Positions 1-61,657 of a stretch of DNA of 61,758 bases are shown here, one piece after another. Source of the DNA: a virus (lineage: Duplodnaviria; Caudoviricetes). The stretch's first letter is position 1; each line of letters begins with the position of its first letter. The position numbers were made by a program, and so were the translations under genes. The notes below the pieces were generated by a model. It worked only from the letters and a program-made list of their open reading frames with translations. It ran no database searches and had not been told where the DNA came from. The stretch is taken from the IMG/VR virus record IMGVR_UViG_3300033145_001155, positions 1 through 61,758 of that record; one strand, 5' to 3'.

Positions 1-101
1 GTCCTTCAATATAACTGTACTTACTCCATTTCCAAGGAGAGGGACTCACGGCACAGGAGGCAACCGATGCTGACAGGGCACATGTTCCGTCTTCCGGCAG
101 A
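1..101. repeat. Terminal direct repeat, left copy (circular contig overlap)
   Basis: Positions 1-101 are identical to 61658-61758, and a reading frame runs cleanly across the junction. Confidence 0.97.
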
Positions 102-1003
102 TGTATGCACCACAAGGCATCGCTCTCATTCCTAATCTTCGCCGTTACCTGTGTCCCGCAATCATCTGTTATTGTAATGTCAGCAACTGCTGAATAATCA
201 TTAGCATCACCTCATGTACCAGCCGCGCAGTCTAACTGCGCACATCGGCTATCGGTCGTGTGCTGGTTCGTGCCGCTGACGTTCCACGTATAGCCAGTAC
301 CGCTCACATTATAAGTAAACGGTGGGCACCCACCATTGACACACACCATAATATTACTGCCCGCCACAATGGTGTCTGGCGTATTATCATCGTCAAACTC
401 AAAGGTCGCTGCCGCTGGACAACAGGGGCACCACATAGTCACTTCTTCTTCACAAATAGAACCACCAGCGTCATAAAAGCGTACTACTAAATCAACCTTC
501 TCCTTGCCTGCGTCCAGATATGTATCCCACGTACCTGCAACCGGGTATATCTTAATAGGACTCACGCCCCCTTCTAATGATATACGAGCCATCGCGAGAA
601 GTACGCCGTCCTTAAATACTTTCCACCTGTCAACCGTTTCTGGTGGGGTGAGAGCCAACCACCCACAGCTAATAGGTCGATCGCAGTCCTTACCCACATA
701 GTTGGAAGAGCAGCTTATAGAACAACCTACAAATCCGCCACCCCAAGCAGGGTCCGTAGGTACAGGACCAGGAAATGAAGGAAAGGCCCAGGATGGCCAA
801 CCCATAAGACCTAACAATGGGTACGGCGGCGGCTGAAAGTGCTCCTGCTCAGCATAACTGTCTACCAAATACGGCTTGTCCATCTCGCTATAGGGCGCGG
901 CCACCTGGTCCTGCATAGCCTTACGCGGTACACGTCTCATACGTGTCACGTAATCGTCATCTTCATCTGCTAAATATGATTTGCGTCCGTATTCACGTGT
1001 CAT
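1..1003 (-). CDS. Cys-rich virion-module protein, N-terminal part; predicted selenoprotein (in-frame TGA at 214-212); continues across the origin to 61476, 394 aa total
   Basis: ORF 212..1003 ends ...LDCAAGT-TGA. The same frame stays open for 130 more codons (GDANDYSAVADITITDDCGTQ...WAALDWCG*), has no in-frame ATG, and ends in a TAATG overlap with the next gene. A SECIS-like hairpin follows the TGA. Confidence 0.8.
175..211 (-). promoter_or_regulatory. Bacterial SECIS-like hairpin after TGA 214-212
   Basis: mRNA UAAUG-AUUAU-UCAGC-AGUU-GCUGA-CAUUA; the loop starts after a 23-nt spacer from UGA, with G at loop position 2 followed by U. Confidence 0.7.
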
Positions 1004-1032
1004 GTCACCTACCCTACCCCACCCTACATCTA

Positions 1033-1242
1033 TTAACGCCTACCCGTTGGTATGCCGCGCACAGGAGCTGGCAATATGCGCCCCTGATTTCGCCAAAATG
1101 CCTCCTGTATTACCCCGGTTGGTCCATCATACTCACTCGGCACACAGGGCATACGTTGCACCAAATGCGGGTTAAGTGTAACCTGTTTTACCCGCTGATC
1201 GGGCCGTAATGCGTGCGGACTCCTCTTCACCTTTGCCATCAT
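1033..1242 (-). CDS. Hypothetical protein (virion module)
   Basis: 69-aa ORF with ATGA overlap to the upstream gene; fills the gap. Confidence 0.7.
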   Translation of the reverse strand: MMAKVKRSPHALRPDQRVKQVTLNPHLVQRMPCVPSEYDGPTGVIQEAFWRNQGRILPAPVRGIPTGRR

Positions 1243-3911
1243 CTGTCCTCCCAGACCAACACTTTCGCCCCTATGGTATATAGTGTACAGTCCTGGCTTT
1301 CCGTTGCGTGTTGTATCTTAAGTGTTATGTGTTGGTCCATTATGTTTAACTGTAACAAGTGACGCCGTATGTCTTGCGTTGCCACTTCCGCCGTCATACT
1401 TAAGGTAAGTGTATGCTGCGTAATGCCATTGGCACTTAGGGTAAGGGTGACGTCACCCGCCGCCTGTACTTCCATCTGTAACAAAAACTCCCTAAGGTCT
1501 ATATACCGCCCACTACCACTTAATTCTGGCTGTATGTAGCTGGTTATGGCTGTGCTAATATCGTTTTGCCCATAGTTATGCTGATAGATAGTGCCGTCCG
1601 CAACGCCACCACCGACCTGCAACGTGGCTATCTGCTCGGACTCTGCCCCTACCTCAGCCATACAGGCCATATTGTTCGCCATGAGGTCAAAGTACCAACC
1701 CTTTCCCATAAGGTCAAACACCGGAAACAGGTTGGGTCGGCAGGATAATACTTCATACGCCTCACCACTAACCATAATATCCGTGTCCAAGGCTAGTACA
1801 GTTGCACTGTCTATGGCGGTTACTAACGCCGTGGTGTTGTCTGTCGTATTTACTACCGTGTCGCCGATCTGTATTGTAGCCGCTATTGGGTGAGCGGAGG
1901 GCGTTTTGCGTGTGGTAAATGCCCCGACAGTGTCCACCAGTTTGTCTGACGTCGTGCTTGTGGCCGTACCTGTTTGTGTTGGGTAACCACTGACAAGACC
2001 CAGGCGCAGTACGTTGTATGCACTATCGTAGCCTAACCAGTGTTCCTTTTCACAGCCACGGCGGATACACTCGGCACGTGTCGCGTCCCAGTAGTTCTGT
2101 ATATCGTCGCTTATTACGTGCATAATATGCCCATCACTCGCTATCGCGCCGTAACGGCTAAGCCAAAATGTCAGCGTCTTAATTTTCTGTTCCGTTTCCG
2201 TACTCGTCATTACGCCTTCAACTACAGTAGCACACTTGGCGTTAAGGATGCCGATACGGACGGAAATAAGTAACTTGCCGTATGTAACTGGACTATAGCC
2301 CTCAAATAAGGTAGTACAACCACCCTCAGCACCTAACTCCTCTTGCAAGACTAACATCTCACTATAGAAGGGTATATAGCGCAAGATTTGGTTGGCGCGA
2401 CCGTCACCCGCCTCTAATATACCATACGTAGGGCCATTGAGGACCATTGGCGCACCAGAAGGGGTTAAGTAGGCATACTCGCTAAACAGGTTGAATGAGT
2501 AGACGGAGTGGCCCTTCCACATAGCAACGGCAGTACCGGCAGTACCAAAATCCTCTACATCATAAAAGGGCATGGTTTGTATGGAAACCACAACGTCAGC
2601 GGCTATAGCAGAGTCCCAGATAAGCTCATACATATAGGCGTAGTATAGGCTGGTCTGAAATTGCCTGGGTTGCGCAGTGGCCTGGCGTGGAAAGGTTATC
2701 CAGCCTGCCTGAGACATACCATTAGTGCCGTCCGTGTCTGTACCTACTGTTGTTAGTCCTGCGCCGTCCCAGTATTTCAGCGACGTCACATTTGTGCCTG
2801 TTGCATTAGGTGTGCCGCCTGGGTCGATATATATGGCGTTTATACGCGTGGCGGACATTATGACGATCTTCTTACCTGACCCCAATTCATCTAAGTCTAC
2901 CGCAGAGGCTGCATACACTTCATACTGGCTGGTGCCTTCTACATACACCTCTACTGCGTCCTGGGGTACGCCATTCCAGACGTTGCGCAAGTCTTGAAAG
3001 GCAGAACCGTAGGTAACAGCGGAAATTTCCACTTCGGCATCTAACTGTGTGTCCGTTTCCCACCTGTACCAGAAGCCAGCCCTGCCATACATGTAGTAAG
3101 GTACTTCGTCTGAGGGATGTGTTAACGTCATAGCACCGCCAGTAGTTGCTAAAGTAGCCCCATCGGAAGTACCATCCGTTTCTGTTGTATCTGCCCACGT
3201 GTTATCATTCTTCCTATACGATAGTGTACCTACTGCCGTTGTGCCATTGGGCTTGGGAATAGTAAAGGTTAGACGGTTTACGGGTATAGGTGTGCAGATG
3301 AATATACACTCGTACGCGGCCAACGTGTTTAACGAGTCGAGGACGGCGTTGCCACTACCACCGGTTACTTCCTTTGTATAATCATACCCGTCATCTGGTA
3401 TGGCAGGCGGGGCCTCGCTGGCGTGATCATACTTAACAAAGGCGGAGACATAATTGGTTGTGCCTGCCCATAGCTGTAATTGGTCGACCCCGTTGGCGTA
3501 GGCAAGTACATCCGACATATTAGCCCAACTGGCCGGTATGTGGCTGGCCGTGCCTGCACCCCAAGCCTCAGCACCAAATACGCCAGTGGTAACTATTGGC
3601 GGATTATTGGTAGCCTCAAGCACGTCGCCGTCCGACATCTGTGCCAGAAAATGTGACTCCGAGTGACGGGCCTTTTTAAATTGGAATAAGGTGCATGCTT
3701 TGTTGGTACTGTCTGCTGTGGAATGAAGTTTGCGGTAACCCTTACGTTTTATTAGGCCGGGATGCCTTCCACGGACATTCTGCGCCATGGAGAAGGCACC
3801 AAAAGGCAATAGCGCAGGTTTGCGCACCGTAATAGCACCACCTTGCAGTGGTACAGCTTTAGTAGAGGCAGGCCATCGTAGCCCACCACTACGTGACTTT
3901 CGTCTTGCCAT
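1239..3911 (-). CDS. Putative tail nozzle/stabilisation protein (P22 gp10/T7 gp12-like position)
   Basis: 890-aa beta-rich ORF directly after the adaptor; N-terminal AQNVR...LIKRKGY pattern typical of podovirus nozzle proteins; GGAGG RBS. Confidence 0.65.
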   Translation of the reverse strand: MARRKSRSGGLRWPASTKAVPLQGGAITVRKPALLPFGAFSMAQNVRGRHPGLIKRKGYRKLHSTADSTNKACTLFQFKKARHSESHFLAQMSDGDVLEATNNPPIVTTGVFGAEAWGAGTASHIPASWANMSDVLAYANGVDQLQLWAGTTNYVSAFVKYDHASEAPPAIPDDGYDYTKEVTGGSGNAVLDSLNTLAAYECIFICTPIPVNRLTFTIPKPNGTTAVGTLSYRKNDNTWADTTETDGTSDGATLATTGGAMTLTHPSDEVPYYMYGRAGFWYRWETDTQLDAEVEISAVTYGSAFQDLRNVWNGVPQDAVEVYVEGTSQYEVYAASAVDLDELGSGKKIVIMSATRINAIYIDPGGTPNATGTNVTSLKYWDGAGLTTVGTDTDGTNGMSQAGWITFPRQATAQPRQFQTSLYYAYMYELIWDSAIAADVVVSIQTMPFYDVEDFGTAGTAVAMWKGHSVYSFNLFSEYAYLTPSGAPMVLNGPTYGILEAGDGRANQILRYIPFYSEMLVLQEELGAEGGCTTLFEGYSPVTYGKLLISVRIGILNAKCATVVEGVMTSTETEQKIKTLTFWLSRYGAIASDGHIMHVISDDIQNYWDATRAECIRRGCEKEHWLGYDSAYNVLRLGLVSGYPTQTGTATSTTSDKLVDTVGAFTTRKTPSAHPIAATIQIGDTVVNTTDNTTALVTAIDSATVLALDTDIMVSGEAYEVLSCRPNLFPVFDLMGKGWYFDLMANNMACMAEVGAESEQIATLQVGGGVADGTIYQHNYGQNDISTAITSYIQPELSGSGRYIDLREFLLQMEVQAAGDVTLTLSANGITQHTLTLSMTAEVATQDIRRHLLQLNIMDQHITLKIQHATESQDCTLYTIGAKVLVWEDR

Positions 3912-3931
3912 AAAACCCCCTCCAACACCAA

Positions 3932-4822
3932 TTACCCGTGTATAGTATAACCCTGCTCAGGAATATTTATTCCACCGCCGCCTCCAGGATCAAAGTCACA
4001 CCACATATCTTCACTTAGCACGTCCACGTCGCCACCGGCGAACGCAAGTAGTGTATCATTTAGCGCTATCTGGAACAGCTTGGCTTCCATATTTCCCGGT
4101 TCCTCTTGGGATACAGGGTTGATACCTTTGGTAATCATTATGGCAAGCTGAGAAATTAAAAAATGAAATGGTTCCGGCAGATCACTAACGATGCCATAGT
4201 ACTTACTGGCCGCACCTGTTTCTGTGCCTATGGTGGCCACGCGGGCCACAGTATAATCGCTAATCGTATCTACCCAATCGTCAGTAATATTTTCAATCTT
4301 CATGCCGTTGTAGTAATCGACCAGCTTCTTAGCACTAGTGGCAAGGGTTATACTTAACGCACCACCAGCACTGGACATACCCATAGTTAGGTCGCGCGGC
4401 ATACGCCAGTACCATAGTGTATACGTCTGGGTACAGCCGGAACGGGTTAGTATTAACGTATTACCCTTACGGTAGTACTCACGTAGTGAACCCGCACCCG
4501 TAGCGGTAGGTCTATCGTCCACACCTACGCGTCCTACCTTGTGGCCGTTTTCATCCGCGAACCGTCGTACTATACCAAAGTCCCATGGCAGGGTAAAAAC
4601 CGAATCAACCCCTACCACAGAAGCACTCTCCAAAAATTCATGTGGGATGCGACGAAAGAGAATGGCATGTAAGTGGCGCTGGGCCTTGTTCGCATTGCTA
4701 ATAAGCTCCTCATTAAGGTGTGCACCACTGGTGTCCGTGGCTTGCATCTTACCGACGCTATACTCGTTCATGCCGCGCCGTATGTCTGCCACTATGTCAT
4801 AACAATTGTCGTATGTTCCCAT
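3932..4822 (-). CDS. Putative head-tail adaptor protein
   Basis: 296 aa; N-terminal helices (LISNANKAQRHL), FTLPWDF and C-terminal SDLPEPFHFLI pattern of podovirus adaptors; synteny. Confidence 0.6.
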   Translation of the reverse strand: MGTYDNCYDIVADIRRGMNEYSVGKMQATDTSGAHLNEELISNANKAQRHLHAILFRRIPHEFLESASVVGVDSVFTLPWDFGIVRRFADENGHKVGRVGVDDRPTATGAGSLREYYRKGNTLILTRSGCTQTYTLWYWRMPRDLTMGMSSAGGALSITLATSAKKLVDYYNGMKIENITDDWVDTISDYTVARVATIGTETGAASKYYGIVSDLPEPFHFLISQLAIMITKGINPVSQEEPGNMEAKLFQIALNDTLLAFAGGDVDVLSEDMWCDFDPGGGGGINIPEQGYTIHG

Positions 4823-4842
4823 GTCGTCTCCCGTTTGGGGGG

Positions 4843-5571
4843 TTAAGCACTCACCAATATTTCATTCGGCATCGTTTTGCCTGGAAAATGTTTGTCCCAC
4901 TGTGTGCGCAGCTCTTCCTTATCCTCTTCCGGGTACTGAACGATGTCGCCTGTGTTGCGAGTTAACCACCCCGCGAAATTGCCTTTGTTCAGCCAGGCAA
5001 ATTTGGGTTTGCGTTTTTCGGTCACGTCTTCACCTGCATTACCTGCACTCCCTGCGTCGTCTGCCTCTTCTATATCTTCCGTATCCTTGGGCAACGACAT
5101 ACTGCCTGACTTCAGCAGGCTAGTTAAGTCCCGTATCTGTTGTTTCATTTCCCCCATGGCCTCTTTCAGATCCTTGTTTTCGGACTCCAGGTTAGAAACG
5201 CGCCCATCCGCCGCCGCTTGAAGAACCTCATAGGGGGCCACCAACTTTACCCTTAGCTCCTTGGCGTGCTCGGCCAACTGTTGCGTTGGATGCACAAACG
5301 GCTTATTTTCGTTTTTACGTGACTCGTTTAGCTGGTTGAAGTTGCTGATCTGCAGCATCCAGAAGTTTTTGTATATCTTTAGCGCTTCTTTCTTGTACTG
5401 CTCCTGGTCCGTCCCGTACTCAATGCGCAGTATGCCACGCCTACTGACTTTGTTCAGTATGTGGTTGCCGCGTGCATCGGCCATCTCCACTATTTCTCCT
5501 GGCAACAATATACCCTGTACGCCAATGTGCGACCACGGTACTTCCTCCGGTGTAAAATTAGCTATAATCAT
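4843..5571 (-). CDS. Hypothetical protein with coiled coil
   Basis: 242-aa ORF in the late operon, tightly packed. Confidence 0.75.
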   Translation of the reverse strand: MIIANFTPEEVPWSHIGVQGILLPGEIVEMADARGNHILNKVSRRGILRIEYGTDQEQYKKEALKIYKNFWMLQISNFNQLNESRKNENKPFVHPTQQLAEHAKELRVKLVAPYEVLQAAADGRVSNLESENKDLKEAMGEMKQQIRDLTSLLKSGSMSLPKDTEDIEEADDAGSAGNAGEDVTEKRKPKFAWLNKGNFAGWLTRNTGDIVQYPEEDKEELRTQWDKHFPGKTMPNEILVSA

Positions 5572-5585
5572 AACATGTACCCCCT

Positions 5586-6092
5586 TTACGCGGCCTGGTC
5601 TGTAATATCCATTGGCGGATTATTATCAGCCAGGCCAAATTTACGTTTGTCTACCACTTTATACCCCCTTGGTTTATGTTCTATGCGACGGAACGTGGCG
5701 TTATTCTTACCCATATTAAACGCCTCCGTGTACGCACGCATTAGCTGTATCTTATCATCTTTGGTAACGTCGCGTATTTCACTGGCGGCTTTCTTATCTT
5801 CGTCTTCCCTATAGGCGCGCATGTAATCTTCCGCGCGCAACTGACGCTTAGCAGGAGACACGCGGTGTAGGTCGCCACCAAAGAGTATGCGCAACTCCCT
5901 ATTGTCCGGTTGACGAAAGTGGCCGTTACGTCCACCGACCATAAGTACTTCATCGGGCGAGCCATAAGCCTTGGGGTGGAAAATAACAAAGCGGCTATGG
6001 CGGCGGCTAAAAGCACATACCAGCTGCGGATCGAACTCGGTCAAACGGGCAACGAAGCCCCTATCTGGTGTTGGTAACATGCCGTGGTACAT
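5586..6092 (-). CDS. Hypothetical protein
   Basis: 168-aa ORF in the late operon. Confidence 0.75.
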   Translation of the reverse strand: MYHGMLPTPDRGFVARLTEFDPQLVCAFSRRHSRFVIFHPKAYGSPDEVLMVGGRNGHFRQPDNRELRILFGGDLHRVSPAKRQLRAEDYMRAYREDEDKKAASEIRDVTKDDKIQLMRAYTEAFNMGKNNATFRRIEHKPRGYKVVDKRKFGLADNNPPMDITDQAA

Positions 6093-6109
6093 AACCCTAA
6101 CCCCCTACA

Positions 6110-6730
6110 TCATATGTCCTGTGCGTACACTTTATCCGCCTGAAAAAGTACCAGTGGTTCCTGTTTCGCCTTAATATCAACCCCTTTCACACGACCGCGC
6201 GGGGTCCGATCTATGGCAGATGCCATCTTGGTTACGTCCAACCCCTCACCCAATGGCCCTAAAAAGTTACATAGGCCCTGAGCAATAGAGCGCGGATAAT
6301 TCACCATCTCCCTATACTGTACATAGTGCGTCGGTATTTCATGTTGCCTTAGTATGCGTATTGCCCACGCCAGTATTTGATCGGGCGAGTCCCATATGGT
6401 GCGCATTGCCATCATGGAGGAAATGATTTCCGTCATGTCCCTCAACATGAAAATAACAAGTAAGGAGCGAGTGCCAACGGGTAAGTGCTCCATATAGGGT
6501 GCAACCAGTTTAACCGCCTTACCGGCGGACCAGGAGGGTGGGTTGCTGGTTAACTTCTCACCCACGTCCTTCACCTCATATATACCATAAGGTGAAAATT
6601 CGTTCATCGCCCCCTGGGTAACCGTGTCCACCAAAACAGGTAGACCGCCATAGTACAACATACGCATCATGGTGGTAGTACCAGTGCGGGGGAGGCCTGA
6701 AACGATAACGGTGGGCAACAGGTCGGCCAT
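6110..6730 (-). CDS. Sulfotransferase-family protein
   Basis: IVSGLPRTGTT PAPS-binding loop, IFMLRD..EIISS 3'-phosphate motif, and YREMV..P...LCNFLG motif. Confidence 0.8.
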   Translation of the reverse strand: MADLLPTVIVSGLPRTGTTTMMRMLYYGGLPVLVDTVTQGAMNEFSPYGIYEVKDVGEKLTSNPPSWSAGKAVKLVAPYMEHLPVGTRSLLVIFMLRDMTEIISSMMAMRTIWDSPDQILAWAIRILRQHEIPTHYVQYREMVNYPRSIAQGLCNFLGPLGEGLDVTKMASAIDRTPRGRVKGVDIKAKQEPLVLFQADKVYAQDI

Positions 6731-7089
6731 TACTTTCCCTTTTTGGTAGCCTTGGGTTTGGGTTTGCCCTTAGGTTCAGCCTTATAACTAACCCCCGCCT
6801 TCATCCCTGTCTCTGGTCCCCATCCTGCCTCGTCTATCACTTCCTGGTTGCGTTCGGCCAGCGTCTTCACCACGACCACCCGTACCGGCATATCGCCGTG
6901 CGCTTTTAGTGCTTCTGCCCCCGTGCTTATTAGCGTTTGCGACACAGGTAGCTCCCCCAGCTTTATCGAGACATAGAATAGCACCAGGGGTATAACACTT
7001 TCCACATTACTTCCTGCTGCCTCGGCTAATACCTTCGCTACACTACACTTCTCGATATCCAACTTGTACACCATCTCTGTTACTTTCAT
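6730..7089 (-). CDS. Hypothetical protein, basic C-terminus
   Basis: 119-aa ORF, GGAGG RBS, TAATG coupling to the sulfotransferase. Confidence 0.7.
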   Translation of the reverse strand: MKVTEMVYKLDIEKCSVAKVLAEAAGSNVESVIPLVLFYVSIKLGELPVSQTLISTGAEALKAHGDMPVRVVVVKTLAERNQEVIDEAGWGPETGMKAGVSYKAEPKGKPKPKATKKGK

Positions 7090-7122
7090 ATCCTACCTCC
7101 CACTCTACTACAATGGCGCGAA

Positions 7123-7161
7123 TGGCCGCGACCCCCAAACCAAAACAGAAGGCCGCGGCCA
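7123..7161 (-). terminator. GC-rich hairpin (terminator or mRNA stabiliser)
   Basis: UGGCCGCGGCC...GGUCGCGGCCA stem in the intergenic gap; no clear U-tract. Confidence 0.45.
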
Positions 7162-7196
7162 GTTAAGGATTAACGGGTTAGTATTACCCCGCGTCA

Positions 7197-8156
7197 TTAG
7201 CTCAGCGTACCGATCGCCGGAAACTCGAAACCGGACAGTGTTGCCTGGTAGCTATAGTAATTCTTTGAGCAGTAAATACCAGTGGCACCAGTCAGGAACG
7301 GTGTCTCACCCGCCACATCCAACGCATAGCAATGATTGTACATCATCCAACCTGTGCTGACCGCTTCCACCATGCTAATACCCGTGGCCGCATCAGCGTC
7401 ATGCAGATTGTGAATAAGATTGCCGAACACCTGAATATTCTTGGCGATCTCATTATCCGCCATATAAATAGGTGCAAACGGTGACGCGTTGAAGTCACCG
7501 GTGATTTTGTTGCCAATGATCTTCACGTCCTGGTTATCCTTGAGCAAATCAATGACGGTCACGTGGGCATCATCGGTAAGGTTGATCTCATTACTGATAA
7601 TCTCAAGCCCGTCATAGTCATTATCTGCCGTACCCGCATGAATAAGGTCCACCCAGTTCTCGTTGGCGGTGTTCTCTTCCCAGTAACAATTGGCGATACG
7701 CACACCCTTGGCGGTCACCTTACCCCAAATGGCAATGTCCGCATGACCTGCATGAAATTTCAGGTTCTCCATAGTGGTATCGGCTGCGGTAAACAGGGCA
7801 GTGACTGTATTCGCCCCATCCATCAGGAAAGTAGGCCGGGCATCATAGCGGCCAAGGCCGAATATGCCGACACCGATCTTGTCGCTCGTGATACCACCCG
7901 CACCAGTAATAGTCTCGGTATGGTATGGACACACATAGATCACATCGCCTCTACTGCTTATGCAGCCCGCAAGTGCATCGTCCAATGTCTTGTGCAAGCG
8001 GTCACCGGCCACACGACTGTCAAGCCAGGTCCGCGCTTGAATACCACTTTTCGCTACATAATGCACCTCGCCCATGAAAGGCCCTTGTGCGCCCATGCCC
8101 TGAATCTTGCTGATATCAATGGCTGCATTCAGGGCTATTCCTCTATTTAGTATCAT
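7197..8156 (-). CDS. Right-handed beta-helix (pectin-lyase-like) virion protein
   Basis: RGDVIYV..YH.ETI motif and repeated I.GN.I / V.GN.I beta-helix turns; follows the major capsid gene. Confidence 0.7.
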   Translation of the reverse strand: MILNRGIALNAAIDISKIQGMGAQGPFMGEVHYVAKSGIQARTWLDSRVAGDRLHKTLDDALAGCISSRGDVIYVCPYHTETITGAGGITSDKIGVGIFGLGRYDARPTFLMDGANTVTALFTAADTTMENLKFHAGHADIAIWGKVTAKGVRIANCYWEENTANENWVDLIHAGTADNDYDGLEIISNEINLTDDAHVTVIDLLKDNQDVKIIGNKITGDFNASPFAPIYMADNEIAKNIQVFGNLIHNLHDADAATGISMVEAVSTGWMMYNHCYALDVAGETPFLTGATGIYCSKNYYSYQATLSGFEFPAIGTLS

Positions 8157-8182
8157 AACATTTCTCCTTTAGCACAGTTTAC

Positions 8183-8209
8183 CCCCACCCCCAAATGTTG
8201 AGGGTGGGA
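8183..8209 (-). terminator. Hairpin downstream of major capsid gene
   Basis: CCCACCCUCAA-CAU-UUGGGGGUGGG stem-loop. Confidence 0.5.
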
Positions 8210-8247
8210 TACTAAGGTTAATGGTTAACGGTTAACTACTCTGCCCA

Positions 8248-9570
8248 TTAGAACGGCATGCTGCTTGGTTCCGTAAGATCGTCAAGCAATGTGAGTGAGG
8301 GACGATCTTCCACGCCAAGGTCCGCGTACATACGCAGGAACATGGTGGCCTCGTCGTAGTCCTCACGCCAGTGCATCATATTTTTGTCAAACCCACCCCA
8401 ACCAATCGGCGTCAGCTCATACTTCTTGATGGCGCTCTTCGGCTCAAAATACATCCTGTTGGGTTGAGTTACCGGGTCGACCAGTATTTCTATGGCCGCG
8501 TTCTGGCTGAACCCAAGGGTTTCATACCCACCCTTGAACACACCAGGTGCGTACCTCCGGTCGGGGGAAAGCAGGCCGAAATACTTACGCCGCTGCCCTA
8601 AGCCCATACGGATTAAGCCAATGGTCGCTTCGGTCCGGGCCGTAGACATGTCCACTGCGGCAAGCATAAGGTCCTCACTGACTTCCCGCACGACGGAACT
8701 GTTGTCCATAATGTTTGCCTTGAACTCCGGGTCGGACGCCACGGTAACACCCTCAAACGTGGCACGTGCAGTACCATCGTCGAATATGGCATTCAGGCCG
8801 GTAAGTTCATAGGACGTGTTGGAGGTGGCGTGGGTAACGGCACGCACACCGTAGCGGACGAGAAAAGACCCGCTGGCTACTGTATTCGCATCATTGGTGT
8901 AAGCCTGCGCAGCGGACTGTGGATTGTAAGCGCGATACGTCGTATCCGACTTCTCGAACGTTACCACCCGCGTGTTGGGGTTAATGCTGCTAATACGCAC
9001 GGAGGAACATGTGATATCCATTACTGTCGACTGGAAAAAGTCACACACCATACCCTTACGCATATAACGTACACCCCGGTCATTGTCAAACGCCACCGTC
9101 CACGTGGCAGAGGTGCTCGGCGTGGCTATGGCGGATGATGTACCGAGCAGACCGAACCCATCACCGTGACACTGCCTGTTAAGATCGCGCAGGAAAGACT
9201 TGTACGCGTTCATTGTCGCGTCACCTTGTGCGTTAACAAACGCAGCCGTGTTACCCTTACCTGCTTCAACGGCCAGGCCGGACATACGAATGACGGCGTA
9301 ATTCAACTTGGGAACGATCAGCCCCTGAACACCATCACCTACCATCGGCTGAGGTAAGAGCGCACCTTCCGCCCTACCACCGATACCCTCGGCGTCACTC
9401 TGGCGTGTGGAGAAGTAATACCCAACGCCAGCGGGTTTAATATCCGCCTTCCGCTCACTCTTACTGAACTGGTTATAAGTCACTGCAGCATTACTGAACA
9501 AGTCAGTAATCTTCTTGCCATACACTCGCTTAAATTGATAAGCGAGAGTGGTAGTAGTTTCTGTTGCCAT
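8248..9570 (-). CDS. Major capsid protein
   Basis: 440 aa; follows scaffold and portal; GGAGG RBS; downstream hairpin. Confidence 0.8.
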   Translation of the reverse strand: MATETTTTLAYQFKRVYGKKITDLFSNAAVTYNQFSKSERKADIKPAGVGYYFSTRQSDAEGIGGRAEGALLPQPMVGDGVQGLIVPKLNYAVIRMSGLAVEAGKGNTAAFVNAQGDATMNAYKSFLRDLNRQCHGDGFGLLGTSSAIATPSTSATWTVAFDNDRGVRYMRKGMVCDFFQSTVMDITCSSVRISSINPNTRVVTFEKSDTTYRAYNPQSAAQAYTNDANTVASGSFLVRYGVRAVTHATSNTSYELTGLNAIFDDGTARATFEGVTVASDPEFKANIMDNSSVVREVSEDLMLAAVDMSTARTEATIGLIRMGLGQRRKYFGLLSPDRRYAPGVFKGGYETLGFSQNAAIEILVDPVTQPNRMYFEPKSAIKKYELTPIGWGGFDKNMMHWREDYDEATMFLRMYADLGVEDRPSLTLLDDLTEPSSMPF

Positions 9571-9603
9571 ATTAAGCCTCCACTATGTAACCCCAAACGC
9601 GAG

Positions 9604-10557
9604 TTACGTCGCAGCGCCAGCGTTGATCATTTCCAGAAGTTCCTTATTGGCGGCGGCAAACGCCTCGTCAACCGACACGCCCGGTACTACACCCTTAACA
9701 GGGGTTCCTTCACCTTCACCTTCACCTTCCCCTTCTTTTTTCCTGGGTGCGCCAGATGGCACTAACTTGGACTTACCAGCGGCATACTCATCCACCGCCT
9801 GTTGCCGCACGTCATCCACGAAGGCCTTAAACTTGTCTACACCAGCCTTAGCCATAATACGTACGGCCTTTACGTCCTCCACGTCCACCTTGTTCGCCGG
9901 GTTATCCACACCAAGTAACATGGCGGCAATACCTATATGCTCCGCTGAAAGGTCCGCTGCCTCCACCACCTTGGTAACTTCCTTGTCATACGCCGCAATA
10001 ATGCGTACACCGTCCTCACTGGACTGCCTATCTTGCTCCGAGCGCCTACTCGCATCTGTTACCTTTTTGTTCTCCTCTTTCAAACGCGCAATAGTCTGCT
10101 CCGGAGTCTCCTTAGCTTCCAATTTCTCGGCGTCCGCCCTGGCCCAATACTCGTTGTACTTCTGTAGTGTTTCAGAGTCCTTTATCAACTTGGCTGCGTC
10201 ATTATCACCAAGAAGCTGCTGTAACGACATGCCCGCCTTTAGGGCCTCGTTTAGCTCCTCTACGGACTCAAAACCACCATCATCGAGTATAGCCGTTAGG
10301 CTTTTTTCTGCTGCCCTCGCGGCTAACCACTTAGGGTCTTTATCAAACTGCAGTACGCCTTCACCCGCGCCACCAGATTCATCAAGGGATGGGGTGCCCT
10401 CTTCACCTGTACCGCCAGGTGGGGAACCTGGCTCTTCTGCCCCAATTGCCCCAGTTGCTGCACCTTCTTCACCAGATGCCGGTGTATCGGACGGGGAACC
10501 CGATTCTTGCCCCGCTTCCGCTTCGTTTAGTATTTCCTGTGTTTCTATCTCTCCCAT
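9604..10557 (-). CDS. Capsid scaffolding protein
   Basis: Acidic low-complexity N-terminus, helical middle, directly upstream of the major capsid gene. Confidence 0.75.
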   Translation of the reverse strand: MGEIETQEILNEAEAGQESGSPSDTPASGEEGAATGAIGAEEPGSPPGGTGEEGTPSLDESGGAGEGVLQFDKDPKWLAARAAEKSLTAILDDGGFESVEELNEALKAGMSLQQLLGDNDAAKLIKDSETLQKYNEYWARADAEKLEAKETPEQTIARLKEENKKVTDASRRSEQDRQSSEDGVRIIAAYDKEVTKVVEAADLSAEHIGIAAMLLGVDNPANKVDVEDVKAVRIMAKAGVDKFKAFVDDVRQQAVDEYAAGKSKLVPSGAPRKKEGEGEGEGEGTPVKGVVPGVSVDEAFAAANKELLEMINAGAAT

Positions 10558-10641
10558 AGCCTTATCCTCCTCTTTTGCCTACCTACCATGTGACACGGGA
10601 CGTGAACACTATGTAGGTGGTATATAGTTGTGTGTTATATG

Positions 10642-10980
10642 TTAGCCAATCGCACCAACCAATTGCCTCAACGTCTTCTTTTCAGTGGCGACTGGTGTTA
10701 ACGATAAATGTGTTATCTGTATAGAGGCGGACATATCTGTACCGTCCTCACTCTCCGATATACGCGCTGAACGTACTTTGGCCTTGCCCACGACGGCGAC
10801 GGTTTGCCCAACGGACAAATCGCTAACGTCTATACCAAGTTTGCCTAATGACTCGTCGTTTAGGTCTAACTCCAGGCCCCAGGGGTATTTTTCGCGCGGT
10901 GCTTTGTCTGATATAGGTACTTCTTCACCACGCTTTTTCAGTTCAGCCGCCGTTAGCCTCATGCTTGTTAATGTTGCCAT
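10642..10980 (-). CDS. Putative capsid decoration/staple-like protein
   Basis: YPWGLELDLNDESLGKLG...ASIQIT.L pattern of small head-module proteins; position. Confidence 0.55.
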   Translation of the reverse strand: MATLTSMRLTAAELKKRGEEVPISDKAPREKYPWGLELDLNDESLGKLGIDVSDLSVGQTVAVVGKAKVRSARISESEDGTDMSASIQITHLSLTPVATEKKTLRQLVGAIG

Positions 10981-10986
10981 CTGTCC

Positions 10987-11148
10987 TTACCCCCCTTTGC
11001 GCGTTACGCGTTGTGTTGCAGACCGTATACCTTTACCCTTTGACGCTCTGTACCCTGCGTAGGCCCTCTCACAGAGGGCTTTACTCTTATACATTCAATC
11101 GCCTGACCCCAGGCGGTATTTACCATTACTTCACTTTAAACACGGCAT
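10987..11148 (-). CDS. 53-aa predicted selenoprotein with two UGA codons: MPCLKUSNGKYRLGSGDUMYKSKALCERAYAGYRASKGKGIRSATQRVTRKGG
   Basis: Hand-translated. Fills the portal-to-10980 gap (ATG 13 nt after the portal stop; its TAA overlaps the TAAGGA RBS of the next gene). TGA at 11133-11131 and 11097-11095, each followed by a SECIS-like hairpin; CxxU motif. Confidence 0.8.
11063..11079 (-). promoter_or_regulatory. SECIS-like hairpin for TGA 11097-11095
   Basis: GCCCUCU-GUG-AGAGGGC perfect 7-bp stem starting at +16 after UGA; GU at the loop start. Confidence 0.72.
11100..11115 (-). promoter_or_regulatory. SECIS-like hairpin for TGA 11133-11131
   Basis: CGCCUG-GGGU-CAGGCG perfect 6-bp stem starting at +16 after UGA; G-rich loop with GU. 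Confidence 0.72.
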
Positions 11149-11161: not shown

Positions 11162-13180
11162 CTATCCTACCGGTGTAGGTGCAGGTCCTTGCTCTGCCCC
11201 AGCCTCTGCCTCGGCCCCCTCCATTTGACCCACTTGCTCGGCTTGCACCGCCGCTATCTGCGCCGCCATTACTGCCAAATGCATTTCCCTATGCCCGATG
11301 AACCACGCCTGTATTTTGGAAGACAAAGCATGAAACTCGGCCCCAAACATGAATTCGTCCATCACCTGTATATGTACGTCATGCGGATCCATCTTAAACA
11401 ATGGGTCAAAGGTTTGCGGAAACCCACCACCCCCTGGCAACGCCACGCGTTCCACCAGGGACGTATCACCAGATGCGAGTATACTATTTTCGCGCTCCGC
11501 CCTGTCCCTATGTATGCTACTTTCGGCGGGTAAGTCACCCAATCCAAACTTAGTAAGTAGTGCCCTCTGTAACATTGGTTGCACCGTTATATCACCAAAG
11601 AACTGTGCCTCCGTTAAGCGCAGGAAGAATTCATTCTGCCCGGCCTGTGTGGTCGCCATTCCACTACCCGGCTCAAGCCTAACGTCCACATTACCGTGCA
11701 GGTCCGCGCCCTTAAACGTACTAACTATTATTTCGTTGCCCTCACCCACTTCCTTCAATATTCGGCTCTCCTTGAACAGGCGCTGGGCTAATATTAATTG
11801 TTTGCGCCTTACCCTCTGCCATGCACGGTAGAACCGCTTAATATCTGGGGTATGGGACATTTCCGCCGTCTCACGTAATACGTCTACCATATAACCGCTC
11901 GCACCTGAGTGAGGGGACGCACCACGCAATACATTTTTAGGGTCACCGCCTGCGTCCTGTATGACGGAACGTTGGTTCTTGCGCTCTTCCAATACTTGCT
12001 GTGGATAGGGTGTGCCATGGCGTATTTCCGGTTTGGCACCACCACTTAGGCGTGAGTCATACTGTATATGTAGGAGGGCCTGACCGCGCAGGCTTACCCG
12101 CTTCATTATCATCTCTGTAGGTGTGAGTAGGTATGGTCGACCTAAAGACTTACGGTTGATGGAGAGGCCCTGATCTATTTCGTTTACTGTGTTCTGCGGA
12201 CTGATTATGTCATCGACACTACCGGAAGGCCAGAACCCGCCACCCATGCGGTTGTAGGCGAAATGTGTTAACGTGTAGTGCCACTTACCCTCTTTACTAA
12301 CTGGTATGGGTAGGTCCGCACCACCCTTTTTGGTAAGTTCTTTGTCCTCACAACGACATATATACAGACCCTTGGGGTGCTTGGCAGTCGGCTTCCACTC
12401 TACCTCTTTAAGCACCACCATTTCCTTGGCGTGCTTCTCCTCTATATCACCTGCGTCCAAACCCCGCCCCTTCCAGGGCGACACATTGGCGACGAGGACC
12501 ATAAGCTGGCGTTGGTAGTCTATCTCCCCTATGTGCTTGTCACCTCCGGTCAATTCCACACCATAGGTATCCTCGACCCACTCCCTGTCAGCCAAGGAAA
12601 TAATACCAACATATTTCTTATCGGGTAAGAATTGACCTAACAGGGGAACGTGAACGTTGAAGGGGATGGTACACTCCGTACGTATTTCATCTTGTGACAG
12701 TGGCTCACCATTGGCGTTGGCGGTATATTTGCCGGGGTTGACGCCGGGATATGTGCGGCAGAACCCACTACCAGTTAAATGTCGCCACCACTCCACTGAC
12801 TCCTTAATATCTTCCAACACACCATCCGCGTCCATGGAGCGCAATAGGCGTTCACCCGCCTTGGCCCCGTCCTTATCCTTAAGCTCCGCGCTATTGGGCC
12901 AGACGCGCGTAGTATAGCTTTTGTTCATAGTCAGCGCTGATATGGAGCGCACATGATCACGCACCATATTACTAACCGGGGTAGGTACTGAACCGGCTAT
13001 GGAATAGCGGTAGCCGAATGCGCTCGGAGAAGTGAACCAGTTTATATATTGCTCGCCCAGCCAGTATAATATATTGCGGAACCACGTGCGCTCCAGGACG
13101 TCCCGCACTATATCAGGTTCCTTGCTGAATATATCATCGAAGGAAGGTGTAGTAACAGTTAGCCCAACGGATTCATCCAT
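11162..13180 (-). CDS. Portal protein
   Basis: 672 aa after terL; FWPSGSVDDIISPQNTVNEI and C-terminal DPHDVHI..EF motifs typical of podovirus-type portals. Confidence 0.85.
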   Translation of the reverse strand: MDESVGLTVTTPSFDDIFSKEPDIVRDVLERTWFRNILYWLGEQYINWFTSPSAFGYRYSIAGSVPTPVSNMVRDHVRSISALTMNKSYTTRVWPNSAELKDKDGAKAGERLLRSMDADGVLEDIKESVEWWRHLTGSGFCRTYPGVNPGKYTANANGEPLSQDEIRTECTIPFNVHVPLLGQFLPDKKYVGIISLADREWVEDTYGVELTGGDKHIGEIDYQRQLMVLVANVSPWKGRGLDAGDIEEKHAKEMVVLKEVEWKPTAKHPKGLYICRCEDKELTKKGGADLPIPVSKEGKWHYTLTHFAYNRMGGGFWPSGSVDDIISPQNTVNEIDQGLSINRKSLGRPYLLTPTEMIMKRVSLRGQALLHIQYDSRLSGGAKPEIRHGTPYPQQVLEERKNQRSVIQDAGGDPKNVLRGASPHSGASGYMVDVLRETAEMSHTPDIKRFYRAWQRVRRKQLILAQRLFKESRILKEVGEGNEIIVSTFKGADLHGNVDVRLEPGSGMATTQAGQNEFFLRLTEAQFFGDITVQPMLQRALLTKFGLGDLPAESSIHRDRAERENSILASGDTSLVERVALPGGGGFPQTFDPLFKMDPHDVHIQVMDEFMFGAEFHALSSKIQAWFIGHREMHLAVMAAQIAAVQAEQVGQMEGAEAEAGAEQGPAPTPVG

Positions 13181-16309: not shown

Positions 16310-16438
16310 CACACAACTCGTTTGGCACACCAAAGCCTTGTAGTTGTGCCAAAGCCTGTTCGTCTGGCCAAAGCTCGTTAGGTGTGCCAAAGCCTTGTAG
16401 TTGCCCCTAACGAGCTTTGGTGTGCCGAATTGTGTGTG
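16310..16438. repeat. Iteron-like array with nested inverted repeats
   Basis: CCAAAGC at 16330, 16349, 16368, 16387 (exact 19-bp period); inverted copy at 16414-16420; perfect 15-bp IR 16368-16382/16406-16420. Confidence 0.85.
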
Positions 16439-30481: not shown

Positions 30482-30518
30482 CCACCAACTTTTTAAATAT
30501 CATCTCCAACCTATTCAA

Positions 30519-34898: not shown

Positions 34899-35205
34899 AT
34901 ACCTTACCCCCTTCTCCCATTTCCGTTTCAGCCACCTTTACGAATGATGTTTTGCACATGGGACACCATTTTGCGCTTACCGCTACCAACAGTGTACCAC
35001 ATGCTTCACACGGCCTCATACTGCCCATGGGTATGTTTTTCTCCCACGCTACACACCCCTCGCAATAGGGCCACCATGGGCCAGGCAACAGGTTCGATCT
35101 GTAATGGCAGACCTCAACGCTAAACCAGCGCCCATAGTGTTTATCTGTCAGCCTCTTGTCATCAAAACCGTCAAGCCAACGCCTGCAAAATGTAAAGCCG
35201 CGCAT
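34873..35205 (-). CDS. Cys-rich Zn-binding protein
   Basis: CEGC, CEAC, CPMC. Confidence 0.6.
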   Translation of the reverse strand: MRGFTFCRRWLDGFDDKRLTDKHYGRWFSVEVCHYRSNLLPGPWWPYCEGCVAWEKNIPMGSMRPCEACGTLLVAVSAKWCPMCKTSFVKVAETEMGEGGKVYDISQAQH

Positions 35206-35229
35206 TAACCCCCCTGTACGCCGCTTAGA

Positions 35230-35336
35230 GTGCCAACAGACATAGCGCTTTGGTTGTTATCCGCACTATGGGATGCTGATTGCCTATACAACCAACGGCC
35301 TCACTGGTCACATCCCTTCTCATCGTCTGCCGACAC
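35230..35336 (-). ncRNA. Candidate structured RNA downstream of SSB-like gene
   Basis: 12-bp closing stem GUGUCGGCAGAC/GUCUGUUGGCAC, GGGAUG/CAUCCC, UGACCAGUG/CGUUGGUUG, AUAGUGC/GCGCUAU; many G-U pairs that work only on the minus strand. Confidence 0.55.
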
Positions 35337-35356
35337 ACAAGCACGCCTGTTTAACC

Positions 35357-36163
35357 TTAGCCCATCTTTATTACTGTTCCGTCGTACACCCATGGCCCCG
35401 CTGACAGGAAATCTTCCTCGTACACCCGCTTGGCGATCGCGTTGCGGTTGGGGTTGCCGGTCAATTTCTGAAATGCCACCGTCGGTATGGTCTTACGTGG
35501 AATACCGTCATCACCTGCATCGGCTAGCGCTTCCATCATGAACGTGGTTGCCTCTTCATCAATGGGTTGGGCCTCACCCTCTGCCGGAGGTGCCGCTTTG
35601 GTTGGTGCCGCCGCTTTAGCTGTACCCACCCCCGCTGTTTTTGGTGCGCCCGTAGGTTTTGCCTTCTCCCACGGCATATTGTGTATGTCGCTCACGACCA
35701 GGATGGTGTCTTCATACTCCGTTCCGTCTGCCGCCGTCCGTTTGGCTTTTGCCAGCCCAGGACGTTTTGGTGCGGCAACGCGGGACATGTGAGCACGCAA
35801 CCCTTGTAGCTCGCTGATGTCATTCCCCAACTTGTCCTCCGGGAACTTGCAGTCCACCAGGGACTTAAGTAGCACGAACACATTACTACTGGTGCGGATG
35901 GCTGTGGCACTACCCACGGCAACCAACTGCTTGCCGTCGTTGCTCGGTGCCCAATCTTGCGCCCTACCGCAGGACCAGTACTGCGTATGCTCTTCTTTTG
36001 TATCGGGCTCCTCCATTGCCACCTTGAGTGCGGGCACTGGTGCGGGAATTTTGCCATTGTAGTCCCACATCTCAAATGCACATTCCTTCCAGTCTACCGT
36101 TACATCATCCAATAGGCCACCCGCTACTGCTTCGGACGGCTTCAAACTTACGCCTTTGTCCAT
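35357..36163 (-). CDS. Putative ssDNA-binding protein
   Basis: Beta-rich N-domain, Ala/Pro/Lys linker, small C-domain; position in the recombination cluster. Confidence 0.5.
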   Translation of the reverse strand: MDKGVSLKPSEAVAGGLLDDVTVDWKECAFEMWDYNGKIPAPVPALKVAMEEPDTKEEHTQYWSCGRAQDWAPSNDGKQLVAVGSATAIRTSSNVFVLLKSLVDCKFPEDKLGNDISELQGLRAHMSRVAAPKRPGLAKAKRTAADGTEYEDTILVVSDIHNMPWEKAKPTGAPKTAGVGTAKAAAPTKAAPPAEGEAQPIDEEATTFMMEALADAGDDGIPRKTIPTVAFQKLTGNPNRNAIAKRVYEEDFLSAGPWVYDGTVIKMG

Positions 36164-61053: not shown

Positions 61054-61476
61054 TTACCTTTTCGTCTTTACCTTTGCCCCTACTACTTCTTGTACTTCCT
61101 TGACATAATCCACGCGCTGCATTTCCGCTACCAAGTCCTCAACACTTTGTGGGTTATAGAAACTAATATCACACTTTGGGCACCACCACTGGCTCTTGTG
61201 TGAACCGCCTACCTGGTTGCCGGGCAACGTGTTAACCGGGTGCAACTTCATAACGCCACCACAGTCCGTACAATGGCGCGCCTGTGCTGCCCAATATGTA
61301 CGCTGCTGATCTACCTGTCGCTGCTGTAAGTTCAGCCCATCCATATAGACCAGGAACTCTTGCATACCGGCACCGATCTCACGATCATTCTGCCTAAAGT
61401 TAATTATCAGGTTGCGTAACTCCTGCCGTACCTTGCCTGTCTTTCCCGCTGTAAGTTGTTCCATTGTTTTAAGCAT
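61054..61476 (-). CDS. Zn-ribbon protein (CTDC...CPKC)
   Basis: ATG 61476 overlaps the TAA of the upstream read-through frame (TAATG). Confidence 0.7.
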   Translation of the reverse strand: MLKTMEQLTAGKTGKVRQELRNLIINFRQNDREIGAGMQEFLVYMDGLNLQQRQVDQQRTYWAAQARHCTDCGGVMKLHPVNTLPGNQVGGSHKSQWWCPKCDISFYNPQSVEDLVAEMQRVDYVKEVQEVVGAKVKTKR

Positions 61477-61657
61477 TAGCCACACCAGTCCAAGGCTGCC
61501 CAATCATCCCCATCACAATTACAACGCCAATAGGCAACTCGTAAAGTCTCTGCACAGTACCCGTCTTCTACTCTCCAAGGATCATTTTCTCCATCAATAC
61601 AATTAGCATAACAAGGATCATCGGGATAATACGTTGTGACCTGGACTTGTCTTTTTT
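61476..61657 (-). CDS. C-terminal end of the predicted 394-aa selenoprotein starting at 1003
   Basis: Same frame across the circular junction (...YIEG|QKRQVQ...WCG*); Cys/Trp-rich like the N-terminal part. Confidence 0.75.

Follow-up and report, generated by a model that had tools for sequence, protein, structure and literature searches.

We analyzed a 61,758-nt window that spans the whole IMG/VR record IMGVR_UViG_3300033145_001155 (Caudoviricetes). The last 101 nt repeat the first, so the genome is treated as circular. A late structural gene block on the minus strand holds the portal and major head protein genes and two genes that are interrupted by in-frame TGA codons (Table 1). The first is a 394-codon gene that crosses the circular junction and has one TGA (site A). 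It encodes a Cys-rich, possibly Ig-like protein, of which gene calling recovers only a 263-aa ORF, although the frame stays open for 130 more codons. The second is a 53-codon gene just after the portal gene with two TGAs (sites B and C) in the frame between ATG 11148 and TAA 10989-10987. We predict that all three UGAs are probably recoded, most likely as selenocysteine (Sec).

Table 1. Features of the late structural block that relate to the candidate recoding sites (window coordinates).
Feature	Coordinates	Strand	Description
Predicted selenoprotein A, first part	1..1003	-	First 334 codons, from ATG 1003; leaves the window at base 1; residues about 93-294 model as two Ig-like beta-sandwich domains, with U264 inside the second
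Predicted selenoprotein A, last part	61476..61657	-	Last 60 codons and TAA stop, after the circular junction (61658-61758 repeats 1-101); Cys-rich C-terminal domain ending ...WCG; whole protein 263 + U + 130 = 394 residues
263-aa ORF	212..1003	-	ORF ended by UGA-A
UGA-A	212..214	-	Codon 264 of predicted selenoprotein A
SECIS-like hairpin A	174..210	-	Upper stem TCAGC/GCTGA starting at +19, 193-189 paired with 184-180, on codons S-A-V-A-D; loop AGUU at 188-185; possible lower stem 210-205 with 179-174
Predicted mini-selenoprotein gene	10987..11148	-	53 codons plus TAA, MPCLK-U-SNGKYRLGSGD-U-MYKSKALCERAYAGYRAS..., 13 nt after the portal stop
UGA-B	11131..11133	-	Codon 6 of the mini-protein
SECIS-like hairpin B	11100..11115	-	CGCCUG-GGGU-CAGGCG, starting at +16 after UGA-B
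UGA-C	11095..11097	-	Codon 18 of the mini-protein
SECIS-like hairpin C	11063..11079	-	GCCCUCU-GUG-AGAGGGC, starting at +16 after UGA-C
Portal gene	11162..13180	-	Start of the late structural block that holds both predicted selenoprotein genes
Major head protein gene	8248..9570	-	Context

A first-pass annotation had proposed three SECIS-coupled UGAs in the late structural operon, with shared hairpin geometry and no phage-encoded Sec machinery. A scan of every minus-strand TGA between positions 170 and 11200 recovered these three sites with that geometry, and GU falls at +23 to +26 in each loop. All three sites fit the published bacterial SECIS (bSECIS) model (PMC13188914), which requires a 4-16 bp upper stem, a 3-9 nt apical loop with G in its first two positions, 16-37 nt from the UGA to the loop, and an MFE of at most -7.5 kcal/mol. 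Spacing, stem, loop, and MFE are 23, 5 bp, AGUU, and -9.5 for site A; 21, 6 bp, GGGU, and -10.7 for site B; and 22, 7 bp, GUG, and -16.6 for site C. The hairpins alone are not beyond chance. Of 1568 TGA triplets, 351 have a hairpin of 5 bp or more at +11..+20, 17 have one as strong as those at sites B and C, and 202 (12.9%) pass the generic bSECIS model, as do 4 of the 16 ordinary TGA stops. Generic hairpins are in fact equally common after ordinary TGA stops, which the first-pass annotation had listed as a finding that would refute its reading, but the Sec/Cys exchange in related sequences overrides this. Rfam gave no match at gathering threshold over the whole window and nothing relevant at E up to 10 around the sites.

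At site A, 11 of 13 aligned homologues end exactly before the UGA and 2 of 13 continue with Cys and a conserved extension. In the DNA of 26 related loci, 17 (14 distinct) carry TGA at this codon, 8 (6 distinct) carry TGT/TGC, and 1 is cut. The frame beyond it contains the conserved extension DY[GSDA]AVA[SD]ITITDxCGT and stays open for 124-160 codons in the 15 complete extensions, which end W-x-C. Among 159 database homologues, 116 have Cys at the site, 34 called proteins end exactly before it, 2 have Gly, 1 has Ala, and 6 do not reach it.

The hairpin downstream of site A (5-6 bp, 12-18 nt after the codon) co-varies in the TGA-bearing sequences and is not kept in those that carry Cys. In 14 TGA sequences, 94.0% of cells are paired and 4 of 6 pairs show changes on both sides (15 cells); the third-codon-position pair occurs as GC, CG, UA, and AU. 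None of 500 shuffles reached the observed value, and slid controls gave 26-63%. In 6 Cys sequences, 61.1% of cells are paired, there are no double changes, and 385 of 500 shuffles were as high. Some observations on hairpin A count against this. The inner two base pairs and the loop GU follow from the conserved peptide A-V-A (GCN GUN GCN), only 7 of 12 full-length family sequences show the conserved hairpin in their single-sequence MFE fold, and two Cys-bearing loci keep part or all of a stem (3 bp in locus L014, and 5 bp with a UAAU loop in locus L006).

The product of the site A gene may be a surface-type protein with two Ig-like domains and a variable Cys-rich C-terminal domain. The structural model has a mean pLDDT of 61.9 and is confident only for residues 93-294. 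Fold matches to tandem Ig-like domains have E-values of 1e-6 to 1e-7 but low TM-scores (0.2-0.35 on the query), and no Pfam or PHROG family is matched by sequence. Strands 273-279 and 285-293 (block pLDDT 81-87) lie after U264, so a stop there would truncate the protein within the confidently modelled region, before these strands.

For sites B and C, the 112-aa neighbor and the portal gave no close relatives, the closest portal relative has an unrelated 53-aa ORF after its portal, and the regions downstream of the portal vary in 80 portal loci. Neither the mini-ORF nor the intergenic DNA matched 113 loci (best E 3.4 and 0.082), and the intergenic fold as a whole is unremarkable (z = -0.56). 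However, a protein search with Cys placed at the UGAs found three homologues (E 1e-12 to 1.5e-8, 53-67% identical) that have Cys at both positions, and one of them has only those two Cys. The two UGAs align with the two invariant cysteines of a large phage mini-protein family. We identified 517 relatives in viral contigs; 77 of the 80 kept parse as TGY/TGY and the other 3 show Cys by eye, although these searches used patterns that demand Cys codons. In 33 Cys/Cys loci, strong hairpins occur in 3 of 33 at site 1 and 0 of 33 at site 2, with a mean dG of -4.3, compared to -10.7 and -12.9 in the window. Two pattern scans found no other TGA-bearing member, so sites B and C rest on one genome, without read data. 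The mini-protein has no PDB match (best E 2.8) and no Pfam family, and PHROG 31267 matches only weakly.

It is very unlikely that the three TGAs are ordinary stops, or mark decaying genes, followed by chance hairpins. Gene callers treat all three as stops, and a 35-aa basic ORF from ATG 11094 resembles the small basic genes that follow the portal in relatives. In this case, site A would end a 263-aa protein followed by an untranslated remnant, and the mini-ORF would be a pseudogene or a 35-aa gene. This is strongly disfavored by the long conserved extension at site A, which has no start codon nearby, and by the covariation of its hairpin. In addition, both TGAs of the mini-ORF fall exactly on the two invariant Cys codons, the rest of the protein resembles intact homologues, and each TGA is followed by a hairpin in the top 17 of 1568 at the same offset.

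Reassignment of TGA to an amino acid, by the host (codes 4 or 25) or by a switch during late infection, is close to refuted, although the in-frame stops do lie in late structural genes. There are 17 TGA-terminated genes in 73 rough gene calls, 16 of them other than site A, and all six ATGA/GTGA overlaps named in the first-pass annotation are present. Read-through of the other 16 gives short or junk-like extensions overlapped by the next gene. A related record that IMG/VR calls a provirus also ends many ORFs in TGA, no suppressor tRNA was found, and homologues show Cys at site A, never Trp, and Gly in only 2 of 119. Only three in-frame TGAs were found in genes supported by homologues. Ten small gap ORFs also have in-frame TGA; one (35393..35205) has a C-x-x-U-like motif, but its hairpin is too close to the UGA and it has no homologue, and the other nine were not compared by homology.

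Leaky read-through by a near-cognate tRNA (Trp or Cys), stimulated by the hairpin, is also unlikely. UGA is the leakiest stop, a hairpin present only in UGA-bearing members would fit a read-through stimulator as well, and both a 263-aa and a 394-aa form could be useful to a tail structure. However, of the 119 homologues with a residue at site A, 116 have Cys and none has Trp or Arg, and the short form would lack the two confidently modelled strands. The mini-protein would need two successive read-throughs, at exactly its two invariant Cys.

The phage appears to rely on the Sec machinery of its host. We found no tRNA, tRNA-Sec, selA, selB, or selD in the window, and four related viral records also lack the Sec genes. 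Reliance on host SelB and tRNA-Sec follows by inference only. No host could be named. The site A family has no relative in the genome contigs searched, and a cluster look-up gave no names. A portal profile matched a single 3.9-kb contig of a WOR-3 MAG, which has only sub-threshold selB matches, and the record called a provirus shows only phage-like ORFs. The suggestion in the first-pass annotation of a Desulfobacterota-like host, based partly on sigma-54 promoters, is not supported: a sigma-54 consensus gives 9 matches against 6.4 expected, with none in this operon.

Insertion of cysteine rather than Sec, by a SelC*-type tRNA that may occur in some Deltaproteobacteria, was also raised in the first-pass annotation. 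The evidence for SECIS-dependent recoding fits this equally, and the aligned residue is Cys in nearly all homologues. It remains open, but we consider it unlikely, as it would give no chemical gain over a plain TGY codon. TGA plus hairpin is kept in 14 distinct relatives within one clade, which suggests that the UGA form offers something Cys does not, and such tRNAs appear to be rare.

We therefore favor, with fair confidence but without selenium chemistry or protein data, the interpretation that the phage encodes two selenoproteins in its late structural gene block. Each UGA is followed, 12-19 nt downstream and inside the coding sequence, by a short stem-loop with G/GU in its loop. The host's SelB-GTP-Sec-tRNA(Sec) would bind the hairpin and deliver Sec to the UGA, so that full-length proteins would be made only in a Sec-using host with selenium. 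The proteins may be part of the virion. The Sec residues would replace cysteines that are nearly invariant in the families, and the most likely role, which is only inferred, is in cross-links: a selenylsulfide in the large protein and a U6-U18 diselenide in the small one. Neither protein has a known redox-enzyme fold, which is where Sec usually occurs. More tentatively, phages of anoxic or reducing habitats may use Sec as a structural element of the virion, with bonds that form and persist at redox potentials where disulfides cannot, such as in the host cytoplasm or in sulfidic water. This would be a rare natural diselenide and would make host range and particle assembly depend on the host's Sec trait and on selenium supply.

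If the three UGAs are Sec, these would be the first selenoproteins described for a bacterial virus. We found no paper on phage selenoproteins, although lists of predicted families in supplements, for example of PMC13188914 or of the deep-Sep paper PMC12013277, could contain these families. A 2021 review of viral recoding names only two poxviruses, and a 2026 review of prokaryotic selenoproteomes does not contain the words phage, virus, or viral. Phage genomes would then contain selenoprotein families that standard gene calling truncates, with Sec in structural-type proteins at cross-linking cysteines rather than in enzyme active sites. Productive host range would be limited to Sec-decoding bacteria. 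The site A family would offer more than a dozen natural SECIS variants in one reading-frame context, useful for studying SelB recognition. In-frame TGA at conserved Cys positions should be considered before phage genes are called split or truncated.

The arrangement resembles bacterial selenoprotein genes with an in-ORF SECIS read by SelB, such as E. coli fdhF (PMC13188914), in its in-frame UGA, its stem-loop inside the coding sequence, its Cys-containing homologues, and the use of TGA as a stop elsewhere. In two relatives (L003 and L005), the loop is GGUC on a 6-bp stem starting 11-12 nt after the UGA, which may be the fdhF arrangement. It differs in that the genes sit in a virus with none of the Sec machinery, that the proteins are a possibly Ig-like structural-type protein and a 53-residue mini-protein, and that the mini-protein has two UGAs 12 codons apart, each with its own hairpin. 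The model of residues 93-294 also matches, with low TM-scores, tandem Ig-like domains in PDB and in predicted viral structures, including tail-fiber and virion structural proteins, but only at the level of a very common fold. Phages with reassigned stop codons appear to have in-frame stops concentrated in late or structural genes, whereas here there are three sites only, each at a conserved Cys and each with a hairpin. In the Qbeta A1 protein, a UGA at the end of a shorter virion-protein ORF is probably likewise read through to add a C-terminal domain, but there the residue seems incidental and the short form the main product, whereas here the codon replaces an almost invariant Cys. The molluscum contagiosum and fowlpox glutathione peroxidases (PMC8310308) are virus-encoded selenoproteins that depend entirely on host Sec machinery. 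Those are captured host redox enzymes of eukaryotic viruses with eukaryotic-type SECIS elements, and here the proteins are phage-specific families with bacterial-type hairpins.

The genome is a complete circular phage assembly with an exact terminal direct repeat, and its unique length is 61,657 bases. The record is a virus record with direct terminal repeats and is estimated to be complete. Almost all genes lie on the minus strand. The genes of interest belong to a late structural block that encodes, in order, the portal (PHROG 156), a 180-nt "intergenic" gap, a Gp10-like 112-aa gene (Pfam PF21628), a scaffold-like gene, the major head protein (PHROG 14242, E 1e-23), several unknown genes, an SU10-adaptor-like gene, an 890-aa structural protein, a 69-aa gene, and a 263-aa ORF. 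Coordinates are listed in the table.

Coordinates of the features discussed in the text; positions refer to the window unless another contig or locus is named.
Feature	Coordinates	Strand	Details
Terminal direct repeat	1-101 and 61658-61758		exact, 101 nt; the selenoprotein A gene crosses the junction
263-aa ORF ended by UGA-A	212-1003	minus	frame runs on for 130 codons over the circular junction to a TAA at 61476
Site A	TGA 214	minus	stem TCAGC, loop AGTT, from +19
Site B	TGA 11133	minus	stem CGCCTG, loop GGGT, from +16
Site C	TGA 11097	minus	stem GCCCTCT, loop GTG, from +16
Mini-protein ORF	ATG 11148 to TAA 10987	minus	53 codons; shares its frame with sites B and C
SU10-adaptor-like gene	3932-4822		
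ORF with P-loop-like motif	6110-6730	minus	206 aa; GLPRTGTT near the N-terminus
Major head protein	8248-9570		
Portal	11162-13180		
Sigma-54-like matches and direct repeats	16312-16410 and 16525-16539, 18981-18995	plus	two perfect TGGCAC-N5-TTGC matches; three overlapping 42-nt direct repeats
Small protein-like ORF	30444-30665	minus	ends in TGA; frame runs on through a second TGA
Gap ORF with in-frame TGA	35205-35393	minus	62 codons; C-D-Q-U-G context
3719-aa ORF	47806-58965	minus	three genes beyond the selenoprotein A gene; possibly a giant internal or ejection protein
Tandem module in the relative L014	L014, about 564-2255		
Tandem module in the relative L003	L003, 5638-6951		
Frame matching part of SelB	WOR-3 MAG (G006), contig C100:2462-3070		221 aa

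We scanned every minus-strand TGA between 170 and 11200 for downstream hairpins, and exactly three fit the recoding sites proposed in the first-pass annotation, which are here named sites A, B, and C. The six ATGA/GTGA overlaps named in that annotation exist, and among 73 rough gene calls, 17 genes end in TGA. The genome contains no tRNA, and no tRNA-Sec, selA, selB, or selD. The observation is confirmed.

The hairpins alone are not evidence of recoding. Of 1568 TGA triplets in the genome, 351 are followed by a hairpin of 5 bp or more that starts at +11 to +20; 100 of those have at least 3 G-C pairs (the class of hairpin A) and 17 have at least 6 bp and 4 G-C pairs (the class of hairpins B and C). 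Based on the published bacterial SECIS constraints (PMC13188914), 202 of 1568 TGA triplets pass, as do 5 of the 17 TGA stops, namely site A and four ordinary stops. By one criterion set in the first-pass annotation, that similar hairpins should not be equally common after ordinary TGA stops, the hairpins would fail, and the case rests on comparison with relatives.

A search with the read-through protein of site A found 17 database homologues plus the window's own entry. We aligned 13 of them, leaving out four that cover only 21-28% of the query. Eleven end exactly at LDCA[AD]G[TD], the residue before the UGA, and two (454 and 398 aa) continue with Cys at the UGA position and a conserved extension. 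We then recovered DNA for 26 loci, 10 from viral contigs and 16 from metagenome contigs. Of these, 17 (14 distinct) carry TGA at the aligned codon, 8 (6 distinct) carry TGT or TGC, and 1 is cut before the site. After the TGA the frame stays open and the peptide DY[GSDA]AVA[SD]ITITDxCGTxVxAxIxN is conserved, with no start codon nearby. In the 15 loci where the end is reached, the extension is 124-160 residues, Cys-rich, and ends W-x-C. Interestingly, in three of the TGA-bearing relatives (L009, L024, and L025) the gene uses TGA both as the in-frame (presumed Sec) codon and as its true stop about 140-155 codons later, and only the first is followed by the conserved hairpin position. A profile search of 1.84 billion representatives found 892 family members at E up to 0.001. 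In the 159 homologues that could be aligned (the 150 listed plus earlier hits, with the window's own three excluded), 116 have Cys in the column of the UGA, 34 called proteins end exactly before it, 2 have Gly, 1 has Ala, and 6 do not reach it. This is the classical Sec/Cys signature.

The upper stem of hairpin A lies on the five codons after the conserved Tyr. In 14 TGA-bearing sequences (the cut locus L013 and three duplicate loci were left out), 94.0% of cells in the structure are paired, and 4 of 6 pairs change on both sides (15 cells in all). None of 500 shuffles reaches the observed pairing or covariation score, and slid controls give 26-63% pairing. The most telling pair joins the third position of codon 1 to the third position of codon 4 and reads GC in 6 sequences, CG in 3, UA in 3, and AU in 2; these are synonymous positions that co-vary. 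The outer pairs change together with the amino acids (S...D with UCA...GAC, against G...S with GGG...UCG). The loop is AGUU, GGUC, GGUU, GGU or, once, GGCU, and the stem starts 12 or 18 nt after the UGA. The inner two pairs and the loop GU follow from the conserved A-V-A peptide, and in single-sequence MFE folds only 7 of the 12 full-length TGA sequences show the hairpin. In the 6 Cys-bearing sequences the structure is 61.1% paired, with no compensatory change, and is no better than shuffles (385 of 500), although the Cys-bearing locus L014 keeps 3 bp and another, L006, has a 5-bp stem with a UAAU loop.

A tree was built from 28 module sequences with X at the site: 12 TGA rows, 4 DNA-verified Cys rows, and 12 Cys proteins picked by hand from the top full-length hits (the loci L006, L009, L013, L017, and L023 were not included). 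All TGA rows fall in one clade of 17 rows with 100/97 support, together with 5 Cys rows. Parsimony needs 5 changes, though well-supported branches force only one. One gain followed by several reversions to Cys is the simplest reading.

An AlphaFold model of the site A protein built from a 25-row alignment has a mean pLDDT of 61.9; it is confident for residues 93-294 and poor for 1-92 and 295-334. The whole model resembles tandem Ig-like domains in PDB and in predicted viral structures, but with low TM-scores, and there is no Pfam or PHROG match. Predicted strands 273-279 and 285-293 (block pLDDT 81-87) lie after U264. We infer that they belong to the second sandwich, in which case a stop at the UGA would remove two of its strands, but the block 261-270 that holds U264 has a pLDDT of only 57. 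The Cys at position 282 is as conserved as the U column (116 of 119) and may be the bonding partner, although this is a guess. Some relatives carry the Ig-like module, with its C-x4-C/U loop, twice in tandem: L014 has Cys in both copies and L003 has TGA only in the second. The position of the gene after the adaptor and the 890-aa protein, the apparent Ig-like fold, and the variable Cys-rich tip suggest that it may encode a tail or receptor-binding component. The 206-aa ORF in the structural block also has no PHROG match.

For sites B and C, comparative searches at first gave nothing. A protein search with the 53-codon ORF read with C at both UGAs then found three homologues of 60-62 aa (E from 1e-12 to 1.5e-8), which read MPC[IV][PK]-C-SNGKYRLGSG[GP]-C-[VM][FY]KSK and MPVKK-C-SNGKWRIGSGD-C-MYHTK. 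Both window UGAs align with Cys in all three, and one homologue has only those two cysteines. A profile scan of viral contigs found 517 relatives; of the 80 kept, 77 parse as TGY at both positions and the other three show Cys at both by eye, but the scan patterns contain Cys codons and the count is biased towards Cys forms. Two pattern scans with TGA at one or the other position found no other record, in a collection from which the window's own record may be excluded. The window is therefore the only TGA-bearing member seen, and support for these sites comes from Cys homologues rather than from covariation. Many related phages have a small basic gene starting MP that overlaps or directly follows the portal stop (often TAATG), and several look like Cys-free cousins of the mini-protein (MPxKxxKxxxGYxV). 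This points to a common small post-portal protein of unknown role.

The hairpins mostly do not come with the peptide. In 33 distinct Cys/Cys loci, a hairpin of 5 bp or more follows codon 6 in 10 of 33 and codon 18 in 2 of 33, and a strong hairpin is found in 3 of 33 and 0 of 33, respectively. The mean folding energy of the 30-nt stretch is -4.3 at both sites, against -10.7 and -12.9 in the window, and the window's value after codon 18 is lower than in any homologue. Two nonsense changes hit exactly the two invariant Cys codons of an otherwise intact, 53-67% identical gene, each accompanied at the same offset by a hairpin of the top 1% class; decay or chance does not plausibly explain this. The model of the mini-protein has a pLDDT of about 90 over residues 1-30, with three short predicted strands (3-5, 11-13, and 18-20) and a predicted helix (23-37), and has no PDB fold match. 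Residues 6 and 18 flank the first hairpin-like unit, so a 6-18 bridge is plausible; it may be a disulfide in relatives and a diselenide here.

TGA is an ordinary stop for 16 other genes, and their read-through frames look like junk overlapped by the next gene, which all but excludes a reassigned code. The 62-codon gap ORF has a CxxU-like motif at its in-frame TGA, but the hairpin is too close to the UGA for the SECIS model and no homologue was found. The small protein-like ORF (...DKERLDFLQWLTNKHEYTGMDD) is probably an ordinary 48-aa gene missed by length cut-offs. The best explanation for sites A, B, and C is bacterial-type Sec insertion, in which host SelB with Sec-tRNA(Sec) would bind each in-frame hairpin and decode the UGA. 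The phage and four related viral records carry no tRNA-Sec, selA, selB, or selD, so the machinery must be the host's. In the absence of host or protein data, two alternatives that use the same signals are not excluded: Cys delivered by a Sec-shaped tRNA(Cys), and hairpin-stimulated near-cognate read-through. The near-invariance of Cys at all three positions argues against read-through with an arbitrary residue.

The host is unknown. The site A family has no relative in one genome per prokaryote species. The portal profile hits only a 3.9-kb contig binned with a WOR-3 MAG, and the link between this MAG and the phage is weak. The MAG shows only sub-threshold selB matches, one of them a frame that matches only the SelB-specific C-terminal part (positions 398-579, E 6e-9) and may be a split or partial selB; this is too weak to use. 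The first-pass annotation took the UGA recoding together with sigma-54 promoters as a hint of a Desulfobacterota-like anaerobe. A sigma-54 consensus is not enriched (9 matches with at most one mismatch against 6.4 expected, and 17 of 100 shuffles reach 9) and is absent from this operon. Two perfect matches lie in the plus-strand block, the first about 115 nt downstream of a family of three overlapping 42-nt direct repeats rich in TGTGCCAAA.

Literature searches, which did not extend to supplementary lists of predicted families, turned up no paper on phage selenoproteins; a phrase search brought only papers on viruses of eukaryotes. A 2026 review of prokaryotic selenoproteomes contains the words phage, virus, and viral zero times (PMC13188914), and a marine trace-element survey states that the other protein families it examined, selenoprotein families among them, have few or no viral sequences (PMC9402790). 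A 2021 review of viral recoding names only two poxvirus glutathione peroxidases (PMC8310308). The finding in this phage is real and, as far as we can tell, new: it comprises one widespread family of probable phage selenoproteins, supported by TGA/Cys exchange and hairpin covariation, and one probable double-Sec mini-protein, supported by TGA/Cys pairs in a single genome.
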